40,066 nt of DNA from a virus. Where the stretch lies: the UHGV virus genome UHGV-0132701; one strand, written 5' to 3'. The notes under the pieces are model-generated. The model was not told where the DNA came from. It worked only from the letters and a program-made list of their open reading frames with translations, and did not search any database. Shown here piece by piece: positions 17,478-39,201 of this stretch (the stretch's first letter is position 1; every line of letters begins with the position of its first letter). A program made the position numbers and the translations under genes.

Positions 17478-19643
17478 TTATTGAGGTGTCTCGGCTACTC
17501 CGCCGGAGGGGATTTGAACTTGACGCATAAGATTCGCGAAATCCATGCGTTGTGAATGAGTCTGGTCTGCATCTTTAAGAAGCAGCTCAGCGTTAGCGCG
17601 AGCATCTTTGCTGCGCTGTTGCTGGAATTGACCTACGAGCTTGAGGTACTCACGCAGTTCTGCCTGCTTGTCGAGGTCCATATTGTTGAAGATTTCTGCA
17701 ATCTTCGCGGCGTTGAGTTGGTTTTGAGCTTCAACCTTGGCAGCTTCAACCTGAATCTGCGCCTGTTGGTTCTCTGCCTTGAGCAATTCAGCCTGACCTT
17801 GCAGAAGGATACCCTGCGCCTGAATTTGCTCTGCTGATGGCTGCTGCGGCTGTTGTTGTGCCTGCTGCACCATCTCCATCTCTTCAGGTGTTTCTGGTTT
17901 CTTCAGCCCCATCATCACCAGTTGCTTGTTCGCGTACTCTCGCATCATCTCGACGCCTTTACCGTCAAGCAGCGTGAAGTATTGCAGCATCAGCATCTGG
18001 AACTCTGGAGTACCTTGCGGAACCTTGGTGAGTAACTCCTGAATCTCTGCGCGGTTCTGTTCCTTCATGCTCTGGAAGGATGGCCCAACGTCCGTATAGC
18101 ACTCATAGCGACCACGAATGTCGTTGAGTGTGACCACATTGCCGGACTGGTAATCGACAACTTGCGCATAGAGTTGAACGTCTTTCTCGCTTCCATCTTC
18201 AAGTGTCAGCGTTACATGACGAGGAACGTCATAAATATCGTTGACCATTGAGGCATAAATCTCGCCATCACGTCTCATTGCGGTAGCCAGGTTATCCTGA
18301 AACACGTATGTCTCAAGGTCTGCCCGCATGTTCAGTTGATTGACGGTATCGAAAGCGACCTGACCATTTGCCGCCTGCGCATCCACGCCAAGACTAGCCA
18401 CCTCTTTCACTGCGTTGGTGGCAGCCTCAAGCATGTAAGCGTTGGCTTGCGGCACTTCAGGGTTTTCCATGTAGGAGATTGGACCAATCGGCAGGTCGTT
18501 ACCGTTTTCATCGGTCCTGTTCTGCAGATAGTACGGATAGTCATCATTTCCACCGTACATGTATTCGTAGCCTTCGATTTGCTCAGGGAAGAAGGTCGGT
18601 TTCTTCTTCGGTGAACGAGCAACAATATCGGCGTTGAACGACATGATCATGTTACGAAGGCGTTGACCGTCTTTCGTCAGCCTTACCACTCCTTCGTAGC
18701 ACTCCTTGTCACCAGCGAATGACCATTCGCCATACACTGGAACGATTGGAATATGCTCTCCGGCTATCTTCTCGCGGTCTTTCAGTATCTGCGTGCAGGT
18801 GATGATCGACTTATACACACGCCGACGCTTCACCTTGCGCTCTGCTACCTTAATGAATCCACGATTAGCCAGGTCGTCGATGACGTCTTTGATATCCTGC
18901 TGGTAATAGCTGACCGGCTCACCTGTCAGCGGGTCGCGGTAGATGAAGACTTTCTCTTTCTTCTCTTCGACCTCGTAATACTCAGCGACGTAGACGACAT
19001 CATTCGATACCCACGGAAACAGCCATGTATCGTTCGGATTCTGGAAAGATGGCAAGGTGTCAGGATCAATACCGTAATCCTCTGCGAACTCTTTCCAGCC
19101 ATTGCGTGACAAAGCGTTAATCACCGTGCAGTGCTTAGCGTCGCTCTTATCCATCTGCTTGCTGTTGGCGTCCCATATGACGTGTGAGCAGGCTTCATGG
19201 ATTGGCAGGCGTCGGATTACCTGATTGTTGCTTGTTGGGTCGTTGTCTTCGTACTGGGTGACCAGACGCCATGCACCAACGCCGGACTCTATCTGCTCAC
19301 GAACGCCAACGTTAACGGCAATTTTTGCCGTGTTATGGCGCATATCAGTACGATACATCCCCATCAGCACATCGGCAGCATCAGGATTAGCGCCGTCTTT
19401 GGGTCGGAAGAGAACGTCGATAGGGTTCCGGCGCATCTCTGCGACCAGTTTCCTGACCACCGGGCGGACAACATCGAATTGTCCGCGATATTGCAGGGTG
19501 GTGTAGTTTGATAGCCAGTCATCCCATTGCGACACTCGGCTAAAATACAGGTCATTTGTCGCCTCGGTTCTGGCTTCATCGCTCGCCATCCAGTCTGCGT
19601 CAAACTTACACAGAATGGAATTGAGTCTGTTTTCGTCGGCCAT
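17478..19643 (-). CDS. Portal protein, P22 gp1-like
   Basis: 721 aa; N-terminus [18 protein letters not shown]...[10 protein letters not shown] and C-terminal Gln-rich barrel segment closely match the P22 portal. Confidence 0.95.
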
Positions 19644-29211: not shown

Positions 29212-30663
29212 TCAGAATCCTCCTTTCTTCTTGGACTGCGGTTCCTCGCGTTCACGGCGGCGCATTTCAGCAGACTGTTGGTCTGTGTCATAAATAGCGC
29301 CATTTGCCTGAATGCAATACACCGTGCCGGTATTGCCATGACGATTGAGACGAAGGATTAGTTCGGTTTCACCAGGTGGAACACTGTCATCAAAAGCACC
29401 TTCACGATGGATCCCCACCCAATAATCGCAATCCTGTTCAATCTGCCCTGTATCGCGCGAGTCACTTGGTAATGGGCGTTTATTGGTTCGGCTTTCCAGT
29501 GCGCGGTTAAGTTGTGTCAGAAGCACAACAACGCAATCAAGCTCTTTGGCAAGGTTCTTCAGTCCTTTGGTGATCATGCCGTAAGCAAGGTCGTTGCGAT
29601 CGGCCTTCTCAGCGGTCATTAGTGTCAGGTAATCGACCAGAATCATGCCAACACATCCTTTTTCTCGCTTGATTCGACGGCTTTCGCTGACGATTTGAGC
29701 CAGAGATAATCCCGGCGTGTCGTCGATGTAAAGCAGGTCGATTTCACTCAAGCGATTGGCTGTTTCGATCGCCCTGTTGAAGTCACCATCGTAATCACCC
29801 TGATAGCCGTCATCAGCGTCATTTGTCGCCGGAAGGTAAAAAATATTCGGGTTAACACCTGACTTCTGTCCCACCAGTTTTTCCAGTATCTGATCACCTG
29901 GCATTTCAAGGCTGAACATCAGAGCGGGCTTTTTCTCATGCACTGCGCAATTGATTGCCATCTGGCTGTATAGCGTCGTTTTCCCCATCTTAGGGCGAGC
30001 GCCAATGACAAACAGAGAGCCTTTCACCAGACCTTTCGGTGACAGCATCCTGTCCAGCGATGGGATCCCTGTGCTCATTCCCCGTTGTTCGCCTGATGGG
30101 TCAAATCGTTTCTCAAGGTCGCTAACCCAGTCTTCCATGACCTCACCAAATGAGCGAAGGCCGCGACGCGATCCGGTTTTTGCATGGTCTGTCAGTTGCG
30201 TGAAAATCGCCTGAATAGCTTCGTACTTCTGCGTTGCAGTCATTCCGTTGCGTGAATAGAGCAATTCCGTCGCTTCAGTCATGCGGTTGATGGCGTAGCG
30301 TTCCATTGCGGTTTCACGAACCTGCATTGCATAGGCAACGATGTTTGCGGCGCTTGGCGTGTTCTTTGCGATCTCAGCGATATAAGCAAAACCGCCAACA
30401 GACGCCGTTAACGATTTACGCTCCAGTTCATCGAAAAGCGTCAGGCCATCTACTGGCTTTTGCTCCCGGTGCATTCTGGTTATTTCTTCGAAAAGGATTT
30501 TGTGTGATCTGCTGTAAAATGAATCTGGCTTCAGCATCGCTAGAACTTTCTGGACGCACTCACTGCTGTCATCATCCAGAAGCAATCCACCAATCACCGC
30601 CTGCTCTGCCTCGATGCTATGGGGCGGCGCATAAAAATTATCGGTCATCGTGTTCACCCTCAC
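29212..30663 (-). CDS. Replicative DNA helicase, DnaB family (P22 gene 12-like)
   Basis: 483 aa; DnaB N-terminal domain (HSIEAEQAVIGGLLLD) and Walker A (GARPKMGKTT) / RecA-like core. Confidence 0.9.
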   Translation of the reverse strand: MRVNTMTDNFYAPPHSIEAEQAVIGGLLLDDDSSECVQKVLAMLKPDSFYSRSHKILFEEITRMHREQKPVDGLTLFDELERKSLTASVGGFAYIAEIAKNTPSAANIVAYAMQVRETAMERYAINRMTEATELLYSRNGMTATQKYEAIQAIFTQLTDHAKTGSRRGLRSFGEVMEDWVSDLEKRFDPSGEQRGMSTGIPSLDRMLSPKGLVKGSLFVIGARPKMGKTTLYSQMAINCAVHEKKPALMFSLEMPGDQILEKLVGQKSGVNPNIFYLPATNDADDGYQGDYDGDFNRAIETANRLSEIDLLYIDDTPGLSLAQIVSESRRIKREKGCVGMILVDYLTLMTAEKADRNDLAYGMITKGLKNLAKELDCVVVLLTQLNRALESRTNKRPLPSDSRDTGQIEQDCDYWVGIHREGAFDDSVPPGETELILRLNRHGNTGTVYCIQANGAIYDTDQQSAEMRRREREEPQSKKKGGF

Positions 30664-31537
30664 GAACTTTCAGGTAGGTATTGTCGTTAAGCAGGAAATC
30701 AAATCCCTTTTTGTGCCAGACGGTTCCGCGTTGATGGTTTGGGCGTTCTTCGAACATCCATCGGCAATTTTCGCCTACGTAGCTCAAATAATTTCTCCAG
30801 TCCTGCATCGTGAACCCATGCCCGTCAAGCTGGCGGGTTATCACTCCGGCTTTGCGCCAGAACGTTCGGATCTGGTTTTTACGCTTGTCATTCAGTGCGC
30901 GGATTTTTGGCGCTTCAGGAAGGATTTCGTGGTAAGCATCGACAACATCCTGACAGCTAACGGAAGGTTTTTTCTTGTCAGACTTTTTGTCTGCTGTGGC
31001 ACTCTCTAATACGTCAGTATTAGAGATAATATTATTATATTCTTTATCTGTGGTAATTTGCTGGTAATCTGCTGGTACAGTATTGCTTACAGGCATTGGT
31101 ATTTCTGGCTTTGAGGTGGTAATTTGCTGGTAATCTGCTGGTACAAAATTTGACTGATAATCGTCATATTTCTCTACCGAGAAAACTGAGAATTTACCGT
31201 GTGAAACCCAGTCAATCATGCCGAGTTTTTTGAACTTTCTAAGCAGGTACTGAACGCGATCTGGTTTGAGTCCTGTTTCAAACGCCAGAGAGTTTCTACC
31301 GCCAAGTAGCTTCCCTCTGCCTACCAGAATTTCTCCTGCGTCAGTCATTACATACTCAGGCGTATGCTTTGCTTTGAGGATTAAGTGAACCCACAGATGC
31401 GCAGCTTCTGCGTCCTTGTAAAACGGCACATCCATAATTTTACGGTGCAGCAAGGCATACCCCTTACCGCTGCTTTGATGCGGTTGTTGTAGCCTTCTGG
31501 CCTCTCTGGCTTCGGCTAGATTAGATATGTTACTCAT
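30638..31537 (-). CDS. Replication initiator, lambda O / P22 gene 18-like, with origin iterons inside the coding sequence
   Basis: 299 aa directly upstream of the helicase gene; internal tandem peptide repeat ([10 protein letters not shown]) encoded by DNA iterons; position after cII. Confidence 0.75.
31051..31145. repeat. Replication origin iterons: two copies of a 29-bp unit TGGTAATTTGCTGGTAATCTGCTGGTACA, each containing two GGTAAT(T/C)TGCTG half-repeats, next to an AT-rich tract
   Basis: Exact 29-bp direct repeat at about 31051-31079 and 31117-31145; AT-rich stretch at about 31021-31050; located mid-gene in the O-like initiator as in lambda ori. Confidence 0.7.
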
Positions 31538-31676
31538 GACCTTTCTCCTTCTGCATCAGCTTCACTTTTTCCAACTCAGCCCGGAATCGACCAGGCTGCT
31601 TGAAGCTGGACAGGAAGCGATCACGTAGTATGTGTTTGTGAATTTTGTCCTGGTAAGGACTGAGTGGTTTTGTCAT
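31530..31676 (-). CDS. Small hypothetical protein (48 aa) overlapping both neighbours, not in ORF track
   Basis: Translation [48 protein letters not shown]; start overlaps upstream stop and its end overlaps the initiator start (ATGA). Confidence 0.4.
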
Positions 31677-32080
31677 TAAGCCTCCTCTACTTCGTAATCA
31701 GCGAAGTAACCAGTAGACATTTTTAAAAACCTTGATTCGGTGACTGTGTAAGCCTTCCTTCCTTTCCTCTCCTTGCCTTCAGGCTCTATGAGGTGGCACG
31801 AATAAATGATTCTGCGCTGCCAGTTGCCTGGCATTTCCACCACTGCCAGAACCTCAAGAATTCTCTTTCCTTCAGCATCAGCGGTGTAAAAACACTGATC
31901 ACCATAACCACAATCGGCTGGCTCATAATTTTTGTGACAACCGCCAATCCAGCGCTCATCGGTATGCACGTTGCCGTCATAAGACTGATAATCTGTGCAT
32001 ACGAAGATAAATGGATATACGGTTTCGAACTTGTCACCGGCCTTTATGCCGGTGTTTACTTGCTTGGTTTGTCCTGGCAT
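31676..32080 (-). CDS. Hypothetical Cys/His-containing protein (134 aa) between cII and the replication initiator
   Basis: Start MPGQTKQ with RBS aggagt; upstream part of the six-frame ORF lacks an RBS. No recognised domain. Confidence 0.5.
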
Positions 32081-32114
32081 AATTACTCCTGTTACTTGGC
32101 GTAACACAGTGTGC

Positions 32115-32393
32115 TTAAGCGTCCAGACTGCTACCAACAGCTGGGCGTTTTTCTTTTGTGAGAATCGATGCCACCTGCTGAGCAAGTCTCGCCATCTCAT
32201 CATCAACAACTCCCCATTCAAGAACAGCCAGAAGCATGGCCATCTTTGGGATAAAGCTGTCTTTCCATCGCGAAATTTGCGATTCATTAATCCCTAACGC
32301 GTCGGCAACCTTTCGCTGACCACGTACAGCAATTCGATTCAGGATGTTGCTTGTAATTGCATTCGCTTTCTTGCGAGTACTTGTAAGTTGCAT
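32115..32393 (-). CDS. cII: Transcriptional activator CII
   Basis: ...RIAVRGQRKVADALGINESQISRWKDSFIPKMAMLLAVLEWGVVDDEMARLAQQVASILT... parallels lambda CII; upstream DNA contains the lambda-like TAAGGAAATACTTACATATG start context. Confidence 0.9.
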   Translation of the reverse strand: MQLTSTRKKANAITSNILNRIAVRGQRKVADALGINESQISRWKDSFIPKMAMLLAVLEWGVVDDEMARLAQQVASILTKEKRPAVGSSLDA

Positions 32394-32512
32394 ATGTAAG
32401 TATTTCCTTAGATAACAATTGATTGAATGTATGCAAATAAATGCATACACCATAGGTGTGGTTTAATTTGATGCCCTTTTTCAGGGCTGGAATGTGTAAG
32501 AGCGGGAATGTC

Positions 32513-32728: not shown

Positions 32729-32839
32729 ATGCCCTCCATAGTAACCTTGAAACAATAATACGATATGTACTTTTAGAATGCAAACAAAAAATACATCTTG
32801 TGCATGGATGGTTTTAGTACAGAGCGTAATAATAAGGAT
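32729..32839. promoter_or_regulatory. Right operator/promoter region (OR with divergent pR and pRM)
   Basis: AT-rich 110-bp interval between divergent cro and cI; candidate pR on minus strand (TTTGCA - 18 nt - TATTAT) upstream of the cro RBS; operator half-sites not confidently resolved. Confidence 0.6.
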
Positions 32840-33499
32840 ATGAAAATGAAATGGTATGAACTGGCTAGATCCAGAATGAAAGAGCTCGGCATAACTCAAG
32901 AGAAGTTGGCTGAAGAGCTTGGTATGACGCAGGGTGGAATTGGTCACTGGTTGCGCGGATCTCGTCATCCATCTCTTGACGAGATTGGTGTGGTGTTTAA
33001 ATACCTTGGTATTGATAACGTCTCATTCAACCACGACGGTACATTTTCACCTGTTGGCGAATACTCATCTGCCCCCGTTAAAAAACAATATGAGTACCCT
33101 GTTTTTTCTCATGTTCAGGCCGGGATGTTCTCGCCTGAGCTTAGAACCTTTACCAAAGGTGATGCGGAGAGATGGGTCAGCACAACCAAAAAAGCCAGTG
33201 ATTGTGCGTTTTGGCTTGAAGTTGAAGGTAATTCCATGACCGCACCAACAGGATCCAAGCCAAGCTTTCCTGACGGGATGTTAATTCTCGTTGACCCTGA
33301 GCAGGCTGTTGAGCCAGGTGATTTCTGCATAGCCAGACTTGGTGGTGACGAGTTTACCTTCAAGAAACTGATCAGGGATAGCGGTCAGGTGTTCCTACAG
33401 CCACTAAACCCGCAATATCCAATGATTCCATGCAATGATAGCTGTTCCGTAGTAGGGAAAGTTATCGCCAGCCAGTGGCCTGAAGAGACATTTAGTTAA
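32840..33499 (+). CDS. cI: CI repressor: S24 LexA-like autopeptidase domain identical in type to lambda CI, fused to a non-lambda N-terminal HTH domain
   Basis: C-terminal two-thirds ([134 protein letters not shown]) matches lambda CI; N-terminal domain ([37 protein letters not shown]) differs. Confidence 0.9.
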
Positions 33500-33559: not shown

Positions 33560-33624
33560 CCAAAATATAAACCCATTAAATACAAAGCGTTATAAAAAAC
33601 TAATTATATTTAGAACATTTTGTA

Positions 33625-33653
33625 TTGACTCGATAAAGTACAAATCGTACTAT
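33625..33653 (+). promoter_or_regulatory. Candidate pL promoter
   Basis: TTGACT (-35), 17-bp spacer, TACTAT (-10), oriented toward nutL and N; embedded in AT-rich operator-like DNA. Confidence 0.55.
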
Positions 33654-33992: not shown

Positions 33993-34325
33993 ATGGATGC
34001 ACAAACACGCCGCCGCGAACGTCGCGCAGAGAAACAGGCTCAATGGAAAGCAGCAAATCCCCTGTTGGTTGGGGTAAGCGCAAAACCAGTTAACCGCCCT
34101 ATTCTCTCGCTGAATCGCAAACCGAAATCACGAGTAGAAAGCGCACTGAATCCGATAGACCTTACGGTGCTGGCTGAATACCACGAACAGATTGAAAGCA
34201 ACCTGCAACGTATTGAGCGCAAGAATCAGCGCACATGGTACAGCAAGCCACGCAGTGAAATGGGTGTGACTTGTGTTGGTCGCCAGAAAATGAAATTAGG
34301 CAGCAAACCACTGTATGAGGGGTGA
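33993..34325 (+). CDS. N: Antitermination protein N (lambda type)
   Basis: MDAQTRRRERRAEKQAQWKAANPLLVGVSAKPVNRPILSLNRKPKSRVESALNPIDLTVLAEY... matches lambda N including the arginine-rich boxB-binding motif. Confidence 0.95.
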   Translation: MDAQTRRRERRAEKQAQWKAANPLLVGVSAKPVNRPILSLNRKPKSRVESALNPIDLTVLAEYHEQIESNLQRIERKNQRTWYSKPRSEMGVTCVGRQKMKLGSKPLYEG

Positions 34326-38833: not shown

Positions 38834-39201
38834 GCAACATCGACAAACAGGCGCTGCGCCTAACAGCAGAAAAGGCAAAAGATAACTTCATGCCGAACTT
38901 TATGGTCCCCACTCGGGATGTGCTGGCGCTGCTTGATGAGCTGGAAGCCAAAGACTCAAGCATCTCTACTCAGCAGCATGAAATACGTACACTTCTTAAT
39001 GCTCTAGAGCAAGCAACGGAGAAGCGAAACTCTGACATTCCTGGTCAGAAACGACTGATTGGGTGGCGGGCATCAGACTACACCGACGAGACATCTGACC
39101 CTGAGTTAGCTAAAAACTGGGCCGCTGCAATTGGTGTACTGCCTATTTTTGAAGGTGATGTGAATACCAAGCTTAGCGCCGCTGGCATCAAGGGGGAGTA
39201 G
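38830..39201 (+). CDS. Ead/Ea22-like hypothetical protein (123 aa)
   Basis: ORF coupled to the previous gene (4-nt overlap); helical. Confidence 0.45.
   Translation: MSNIDKQALRLTAEKAKDNFMPNFMVPTRDVLALLDELEAKDSSISTQQHEIRTLLNALEQATEKRNSDIPGQKRLIGWRASDYTDETSDPELAKNWAAAIGVLPIFEGDVNTKLSAAGIKGE

Follow-up and report, generated by a model that had tools for sequence, protein, structure and literature searches.

The initiator proteins of several lambdoid phages bind sites within the very genes that encode them: the O proteins of phages lambda, 933W and P27 give footprints on iterons inside their own O genes (PMC7466680). For lambda, experiments place the origin specificity in the N-terminal half of the O protein and the choice of the replication partner in the C-terminal half (PMC7466680, PMC2629481). 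The origins closest to the one analyzed here are known from genome annotation. In the record of phage HK620, the two repeats described below constitute a two-piece rep_origin that maps exactly to positions 31050-31079 and 31116-31145 of our sequence; the record of VT2-Sakai (Sp5) contains, at the same coordinates, two 30-bp O-protein binding features denoted 'ori iteron 1' and 'ori iteron 2'; and the record of Sf6 carries the comment 'putative; repeat region reminiscent of the phage lambda origin; similar to phage HK620'. In the genome paper on phage L, six imprecise 11-bp repeats (TGTCCAACGGA) in gene 18 are considered the likely origin (PMC8022706). The database annotations of the HK620, VT2-Sakai and Sf6 type are themselves predictions by analogy, and our search of the literature recovered no footprint, ori cloning or mapping of replication intermediates for an origin of the HK022 type. 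The experiments on Stx-phage origins that we found cover only the lambda-like type of 933W and P27 (PMC7466680); many Shiga-toxin prophages, among them VT2-Sakai, the Stx1 converting phage and the PA series, replicate by means of the HK022-type module.

The window, that is, the entire 40,066-nt stretch of DNA that was analyzed, is a P22-like genome or prophage (Lederbergvirus; HK620/Sf6/IME10-like) in inverted orientation. An earlier note on this DNA read a duplicated unit within an O-like gene as the iterons of a replication origin. As judged from sequence comparisons, the repeats are almost certainly the initiator-binding sites of the replication origin of this P22-like phage, and the locus is very probably the vegetative replication origin of an HK022/HK620-type lambdoid module carried by a P22-like phage or prophage. 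The finding is an ordinary one because the GenBank records of HK620 and VT2-Sakai already annotate the same sequence: the 143-bp segment 31003-31145 is one base away from HK620 and two bases away from VT2-Sakai, with all the differences located in the spacer between the repeats. Beyond what is already known, we report two modest additions, namely the covariation of a palindrome next to the repeats and a series of relatives that links the N-terminal domain of the initiator with iteron specificity.

Organization of the replication module

The genes of the module are arranged on the minus strand in the order cII (PF05269), orf48, O-like initiator, DnaB-family helicase, with an extra 134-aa ORF in the window between cII and orf48. 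The module comprises the following features:

29212-30648, minus strand: gene for a phage DnaB-family replicative helicase, the counterpart of P22 gp12 (TIGR03600 phage_DnaB, E = 1.3e-175, above the cut-off; Pfam DnaB and DnaB_C)
30638-31537, minus strand: gene for an O-like replication initiator of 299 aa (phrog_345 'replication initiation O-like', E = 1.8e-87)
31003-31026, no strand assigned: perfect palindrome TCTCTAATAC-GTCA-GTATTAGAGA, 24 bp, with 10-bp arms and a 4-nt centre, from the repeat search
31027-31049, no strand assigned: AT-rich tract of ~23 bp at the GC minimum, the presumed DNA-unwinding element
31050-31079, minus strand: iteron cluster 2, an exact copy of cluster 1 that adjoins the AT-rich tract; 'ori iteron 2' of VT2-Sakai; cores on the coding strand GTACCA 31078-31073, TTACCA 31067-31062 and TTACCA 31056-31051
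31080-31115, minus strand: non-repeated spacer between the clusters, fixed in length and variable in sequence
31116-31145, minus strand: iteron cluster 1, an exact 30-nt repeat, nearer the 5' end of the gene; 'ori iteron 1' of VT2-Sakai and one piece of the HK620 rep_origin; cores on the coding strand GTACCA 31144-31139, TTACCA 31133-31128 and TTACCA 31122-31117
31530-31676, minus strand: homologue of orf48/hkaW (DUF2740), just upstream of the initiator gene (Pfam PF10872, E = 9e-29)

The helicase gene, for which the start was set by analogy with the P protein of HK620 (478 aa), shares 11 nt with the end of the initiator gene, and orf48 is found at the equivalent position in HK620, HK022, L, Chronis and ST101-KPC2phi6.1. 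Scans of the window for Rfam families and tRNAs yielded no matches.

The initiator gene shares 99.3-99.4% identity with its O counterparts in HK620, HK630, HK022, VT2-Sakai, the Stx1 converting phage and numerous further Stx phages, the protein is 99% identical to the O proteins of HK620, HK022 and VT2-Sakai, and the gene is present in 396 of the 5,426 complete E. coli genomes, with 433 copies in E. coli. The protein consists of a predicted N-terminal DNA-binding domain spanning residues 1 to ~130, a linker whose coding sequence contains the origin, and a C-terminal domain. The N-terminal domain matches PHROG families annotated as 'DnaD-like helicase loader' (E-values from 6e-21 to 2e-8; phrog_2514, E = 6.3e-21) as well as, in tblastn searches, DnaD-domain proteins of staphylococcal phages (~1e-7); the match of the initiator to Pfam Phage_rep_org_N is below the threshold (E = 0.12). 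A winged-helix fold of the DnaD-like/replisome-organizer type is a candidate for this domain. Lambda O matches Pfam PF04492 (Phage_rep_O) with E = 5.7e-36, whereas the initiator from the window has no match to this family at E <= 1; the plasmid Rep families of Pfam and NCBIfam gave no match to the initiator either. A profile match to lambda O with a probability of 97.5% fell to 0.2% in hhalign when the chimeric protein of Erwinia phage Eho59 (see below) was left out; this match is an artefact because Eho59 has a lambda-like C-terminal domain, and homology to lambda O was accordingly rejected. Searches of solved structures with the initiator sequence produced no meaningful match, and the single-sequence AlphaFold2 model (pLDDT 41, pTM 0.24) was unusable.

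Within the initiator gene, the sequence GTGGTAATTTGCTGGTAATCTGCTGGTACA is present on the plus strand as an exact 30-nt repeat, with the two copies (31050-31079 and 31116-31145) 66 bp apart from start to start and 36 bp in between. When up to three mismatches were allowed, a 29-nt version of the repeat was found at two sites only in the 40-kb window, compared to the shuffle expectation of 0.00 (100 shuffles). Each 30-nt unit comprises three 6-bp cores (TTACCA/GTACCA; TGGTAA, TGGTAA and TGGTAC on the plus strand) at 11-bp spacing, amounting to six asymmetric cores in direct orientation that form two clusters of three; the repeat search detected no inverted repeat inside either cluster. The initiator may have the 6-bp core, the 11-mer or the entire 30-mer as its binding unit. 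No further cluster of the core motif was found elsewhere in the 40-kb window. Lone TTACCAGCA 9-mers, without any cluster structure, occur at 18898 and 29170; considered as candidates for extra initiator sites, these unclustered copies are probably chance occurrences.

Both 30-nt copies are in frame within the 299-aa ORF and encode the same decapeptide twice. The AT-rich tract lies directly downstream of the iterons in the direction of the gene and encodes an Asn/Ile-rich linker, KEYNNII; the 40-nt segment 31018-31057, with a GC content of 17.5%, is the lowest in the initiator gene and ties for the second lowest among all 40-nt segments of the whole 40 kb. Thus, the claims of the earlier note on the place of two exact repeat copies, on their position inside an O-like gene in which they encode a repeated decapeptide, and on the adjoining AT-rich tract all hold, and the repeat by far exceeds chance expectation. 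The duplication of separated units that it recognized is real as well, but the exact unit is 30 nt rather than 29 bp, the gap is 36 bp rather than ~38 bp, and instead of two half-repeats per unit, we identified three cores at 11-bp spacing, that is, 2 x 3 sites.

The palindrome adjoining the AT-rich tract

We compared the locus with 88 relatives, namely 8 from GenBank, with 35-99% amino acid identity of the initiators, and 80 IMG/VR loci. In all the relatives compared, the AT-rich tract is found at the equivalent position, and a perfect stem of 9-10 bp with a 4-nt centre is present in 88 of the 88, in at least 6 sequence versions that differ in the encoded peptide. Aligned across 23 distinct relatives, the palindrome is 100% complementary at its inner 8 pairs: seven of the eight show changes on both sides, one-sided changes number zero, and all 184 cells of the 8-bp inner helix are Watson-Crick pairs, with G-U seen in none of the 10 pairs. 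In controls with slid partners, pairing falls to 36-50%. As a single-stranded DNA hairpin, the palindrome has a predicted folding energy of -7.6 kcal/mol (z = -5.1). This covariation, through which compensatory changes keep the palindrome intact in all the relatives, is open to experimental test and gives access to a component of lambdoid origins that has long been neglected.

The probable role of the palindrome is that of a DNA structure, in the form of a hairpin or cruciform, or of a symmetric binding site bordering the region of unwinding. Alternatively, its role might be exerted in RNA, instead of as a DNA element of the origin: it could form a hairpin in the mRNA of the initiator or, together with the T-rich tract of the plus strand, terminate antisense transcription. 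Indeed, a consensus scan lists on the plus strand a terminator-like TCTCTAATAC...GTATTAGAGA stem followed by the tail TAATATTATT, the record of phage L has a predicted terminator on the antisense strand at the corresponding place, and the antisense strand of lambda is likewise T-rich past its palindrome. However, the stem has G-C pairs at only 3 of 10 positions and the tail is interrupted, so that this would be a weak terminator; a scan of 30600-32500 detected no antisense promoter downstream; and strict Watson-Crick pairing without G-U is a better fit to double-stranded or hairpin DNA than to RNA. Taken together, these observations make an RNA-level role of the palindrome unlikely.

Geometry, specificity and selection of the iteron clusters

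On the coding strand of the relatives, the same layout recurs in an 11-nt register: three cores, a non-repeated stretch of 33 bp, three cores, the AT-rich tract and the palindrome. The 3 + 3 cores (NNNCCA) at 11-bp spacing are located in the linker-coding part of the gene in the window, in the 8 GenBank relatives and in the IMG/VR loci, with two exceptions among the latter, L048 with one cluster and L046 with three; hence the 2 x 3 arrangement is not absolutely fixed. The spacing between clusters is 66 bp in all 8 GenBank relatives and in all the two-cluster IMG/VR loci; because the spacer is fixed in length, the distance is always 6 x 11 bp. The two clusters of a given relative always match each other.

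Across this family, which includes HK022, L, Sf6, Chronis, ST101-KPC2phi6.1, ENT47670 and Eho59, the initiators are associated with five types of core overall: TTACCAGCA in the window, TGTCCAACG in L, Sf6 and ENT47670, TGTCCAGCC in the Chronis group, GTGCCAACA in ST101-KPC2phi6.1 and Eho59, and TTACCAACA in another group. When the N-terminal domains were clustered at 80% identity, each cluster was found to have a single iteron type, barring degenerate consensus positions and the one-cluster variant L048. By comparison, TTACCAGCA, TGTCCAACG and TGTCCAGCC, the three types seen most often, are each combined with two to three clusters of C-terminal domains, and one C-terminal domain cluster carries three iteron types. 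The iteron type tracks the N-terminal domain of the initiator, not the C-terminal domain, and this coupling is the classical signature of an origin that owes its specificity to the N-terminal domain of the initiator. The protein of Erwinia phage Eho59 is a natural chimera: the N-terminal half together with the iterons is 54% identical to ST101-KPC2phi6.1, the C-terminal half is 70% identical to lambda O, and the next gene encodes a lambda-P-like loader. With five iteron types linked to the N-terminal domain and a chimera with a lambda-type C-terminal domain, the family represents a natural series for the study of the evolution of DNA specificity in initiators.

The clusters could also be envisaged as initiator-binding sites with a regulatory role (autoregulation, a transcription roadblock or copy-number control by pairing), with replication starting elsewhere. 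The sequence alone gives no proof of strand opening at the clusters, the arrays of plasmid iterons also act in copy control and autorepression, and the window has further, single TTACCAGCA copies at 18898 and 29170. Nevertheless, directly next to the clusters are the stretch with the highest AT content in the gene and a conserved palindrome, an order also found in the experimentally defined oriλ; the window contains no second cluster of the core motif; and the origin segment travels with the N-terminal domain in the Eho59 chimera. A purely regulatory role with a replication start at another site therefore appears very unlikely, and identification of the clusters as part of the origin is the reading that we adopt.

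Selection on the clusters can be gauged from synonymous sites. Among 34 distinct genes with the iteron type of the window, the diversity at third codon positions is 0.026 in the clusters, compared to 0.157 in the spacer and 0.174 in the part of the gene that encodes the N-terminal domain, so that the clusters vary ~6-fold less at synonymous sites than either of the other regions; among 10,000 random sets of third positions, none had a diversity as low as that of the clusters. In 34 distinct sequences of this iteron type, 31 of the 38 columns of the spacer are variable. The clusters are subject to strong purifying selection at the DNA level, and the spacer is free of it.

These observations bear on the possibility that the repeats are a feature of the protein, that is, a duplicated decapeptide linker selected at the amino acid level, with the DNA repeat as a by-product. 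The repeats are in frame in a coding region and yield the same decapeptide twice, and they fall in a poorly conserved linker that may be flexible. However, as 11 is not divisible by 3, no two of the three cores in a cluster share a reading frame, and therefore a peptide repeat does not explain them; furthermore, the synonymous sites in the clusters are ~6-fold less variable than those in the rest of the gene, and the peptide changes freely among the relatives while the 11/66-bp geometry of the DNA is constant. We consider such an explanation extremely improbable. Hardly credible at all is a neutral, functionless product of slippage or unequal crossing-over: the one-cluster (L048) and three-cluster (L046) variants show that the 66-bp unit does recombine, but the 3 + 3 layout persists down to 35% initiator identity and across five core sequences, with clusters that always match, and strong purifying selection acts on the clusters and not on the spacer. 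We rejected both the peptide-repeat and the neutral-duplication readings in view of the reading frames, the synonymous sites and the comparative evidence. The interpretation of the repeats as origin iterons, as proposed in the earlier note, is thus supported by the annotation of HK620 and VT2-Sakai, the frames of the cores, the synonymous conservation, the coupling with the N-terminal domain and the oriλ-like order of the elements, all of which suggest a function in replication initiation.

Predicted mechanism and comparison with known systems

The sequence directly documents the anatomy of the locus, the selection on its DNA, the coupling of the iteron type with the N-terminal domain and the identity to annotated origins; from these, we infer initiator binding, its stoichiometry, unwinding and helicase loading along the following lines. 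The N-terminal domain of the O-like protein would recognize each T/G-TACCA core, and the 11-bp spacing would line up the protomers, three per cluster, in a head-to-tail tandem along approximately the same face of the helix. The second cluster, six repeat units away and in register, would give rise to a bent or wrapped nucleoprotein complex, and this complex would destabilize the adjoining AT-rich tract. The C-terminal domain of the initiator can be predicted to recruit to the melted DNA the phage's own DnaB-type helicase, which is encoded immediately downstream. The origin is located inside the cro/cII operon, and transcription from the operon promoter, as predicted from the gene order, would cross the origin, as is the case in lambda.

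Tentatively, this scheme can be taken further: the palindrome might be an obligatory structural element of this class of origins and, by analogy, of oriλ, where it would fold upon unwinding into a hairpin or cruciform and guide the loading of the helicase or the first priming event, and the 66-bp register might correspond to a wrapped complex of six protomers. If so, defense systems such as Lamassu/DdmABC, which respond to palindromes or origins, could plausibly be triggered by it; the palindrome is relevant to the recognition of phage origins by defense systems (PMC12663957).

Several known systems resemble the locus in geometry or logic. The initiators of the Rep_3 and RepA-π plasmids have the WH1-WH2 organization and 19-22-bp iterons, whereas the repeat unit in the window is 11 bp and the initiator has no Rep match. 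Asymmetric sites spaced by about one helical turn, such as 11-bp direct repeats, give rise to head-to-tail arrays on one face of the DNA, and in this respect the locus is reminiscent of the pho boxes, to which the winged-helix domains of PhoB/OmpR bind in tandem, and of iteron-plasmid Rep proteins; with these, the analogy is geometric only, with no sequence relationship detected, and PhoB/OmpR function in transcription whereas the element in the window is predicted to function in replication initiation. The replisome organizers of Gram-positive phages of the SPP1 G38P type (DnaD-like/Phage_rep_org_N) bind direct repeats of the origin inside their own genes. The N-terminal domain of the window initiator shows affinity to such DnaD-like families in the PHROG and tblastn searches, but the partner proteins and hosts are different.

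Genes 18 and 12 of P22 follow the same logic, with a gene for an origin-binding protein that contains repeats followed by a gene for a phage DnaB-type helicase; P22 gp12 has helicase activity. The repeats in P22 gene 18, four of ~20 bp, differ from those in the window in both length and sequence, and gp18 of P22 is ~25% identical to gp18 of phage L, a comparison that rests on the phage L genome paper (PMC8022706).

The resemblance to lambda is in the architecture. As in oriλ, the origin is located inside the initiator gene, in the part that encodes the interdomain linker, and consists of iterons followed by an AT-rich tract and then a palindrome: on the coding strand of the window, the iterons occupy 31145-31050, the AT-rich tract 31049-31027 and the palindrome 31026-31003, and in oriλ, the iterons at 39034-39118 are followed by the AT-rich tract and, directly to the right of it, a 28-bp palindrome with 12-nt arms and a 4-nt centre (L091 563-590). 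The differences are equally clear. Lambda has four contiguous iterons of 18-19 bp with dyad symmetry, in contrast to the six asymmetric direct cores in two separated clusters found here; the N-terminal domain of lambda O belongs to PF04492, to which the window initiator has no match; and lambda encodes the P loader that acts with the host DnaB, whereas the module in the window encodes its own DnaB-family helicase. As no homology between the initiator and lambda O is detectable, the likeness to lambda is one of architecture and not of family.

Much closer are gene 18 of phages L and ST64T and gene 43 of Sf6, which encode homologous initiators with 65-66% identity and a near-identical C-terminal domain. 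The putative origins of these phages, with six 11-bp repeats (TGTCCAACGGA) each, share with the window the 3 + 3 cores, the 11- and 66-bp spacing, the AT-rich tract and the palindrome, but the core is TGTCCA as opposed to TTACCA in the window and the N-terminal domains are only ~48-52% identical, which implies a different origin specificity. Finally, the HK022/HK620/VT2-Sakai module is essentially the same DNA, with the O gene followed by a DnaB-like P gene as in the window, and shows no substantive difference apart from the 134-aa ORF that the window adds upstream. Thus, the earlier note correctly contrasted the two separated units with the four contiguous iterons of lambda, but the novelty that this contrast implied does not hold: the element is already known, and its arrangement is the standard described layout of the HK022/HK620/Sf6/L replication module.

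A chimeric initiator in an Erwinia phage

Among the relatives of the window's O-like initiator, the protein of one Erwinia phage combines two distinct lineages: it is a natural chimera of an N-half from the 11-bp-iteron family and a lambda-O-like C-half.

686-1636 (coordinates of comparison locus L008): gp58, the initiator of Erwinia phage vB_EhrS_59 (Eho59)

The N-half of gp58 is 54% identical to the initiator of Klebsiella phage ST101-KPC2phi6.1, and this half, together with the iterons, the AT-rich tract and the palindrome, belongs to the family of the window initiator, that is, the 11-bp-iteron family. The C-half shows 70% identity to lambda O, and downstream of gp58, a lambda-P-like loader replaces the DnaB-type helicase. 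The junction of the chimera lies directly past the origin.

Natural variation of the origin

Two IMG/VR loci carry naturally occurring versions of the origin that differ in copy number, with three iteron clusters (+66 bp) in the initiator gene of L046 (IMGVR_UViG_2645727562_000001) and a single cluster (-66 bp) in that of L048 (IMGVR_UViG_2630968558_000001). These cluster numbers match the products expected from unequal crossing-over between the 30-bp repeats. Natural substitutions within the iteron cores are very few; the second iteron clusters of HK022 (L009, U02466) and of comparison locus L038 are relevant here, and in HK022 the leading core of this cluster is GTCCCA, not GTACCA.

In every relative, compensatory changes maintain the palindrome adjoining the AT-rich tract (31003-31026). 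An equivalent palindrome occupies the corresponding place in lambda (lambda 39162-39189; L091 563-590). On the + strand, antisense to the initiator gene, the window palindrome has a weak terminator-like score. Among all 40-nt segments of the window, AT content peaks at 33590-33629 (GC 15%); this segment is located between cI (32798-33499) and N (33993-34325), presumably in the pL/operator-nutL region.

An insertion between cII and orf48

The interval between cII and the orf48 gene contains the following features:

31676-32080, minus strand: ORF of 134 aa, matching phrog_30464 (function unknown)
32035-32054, + strand: G+C-rich hairpin with a T-run
32055-32083, + strand: promoter-like site TTTACT-17-CATAAT, abutting the hairpin

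The ORF product is 91% identical to a protein of HK639 and 78-82% identical to proteins of Hafnia and Klebsiella phages; searches with Pfam and NCBIfam profiles yielded zero matches, and a megablast search of the ORF DNA against 50,697 phage records gave no match. The hairpin and the promoter-like site (32035-32083) are antisense to the cro/cII operon and lie within the 5' end of the inserted ORF, close to the end of cII; this pair may be a remnant of the oop/pO region or its relocated equivalent.

The insertion point lies exactly behind the conserved lambdoid boundary sequence ACAGGAGTAATTATG (approximately 32094-32078), and the ORF looks like a moron-type insertion into the cro/cII operon, at the usual position of oop/pO. 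Whereas the window harbors the 134-aa ORF between cII and orf48, the same interval spans only about 35 nt in HK620 and is about as short in HK022 and phage L.
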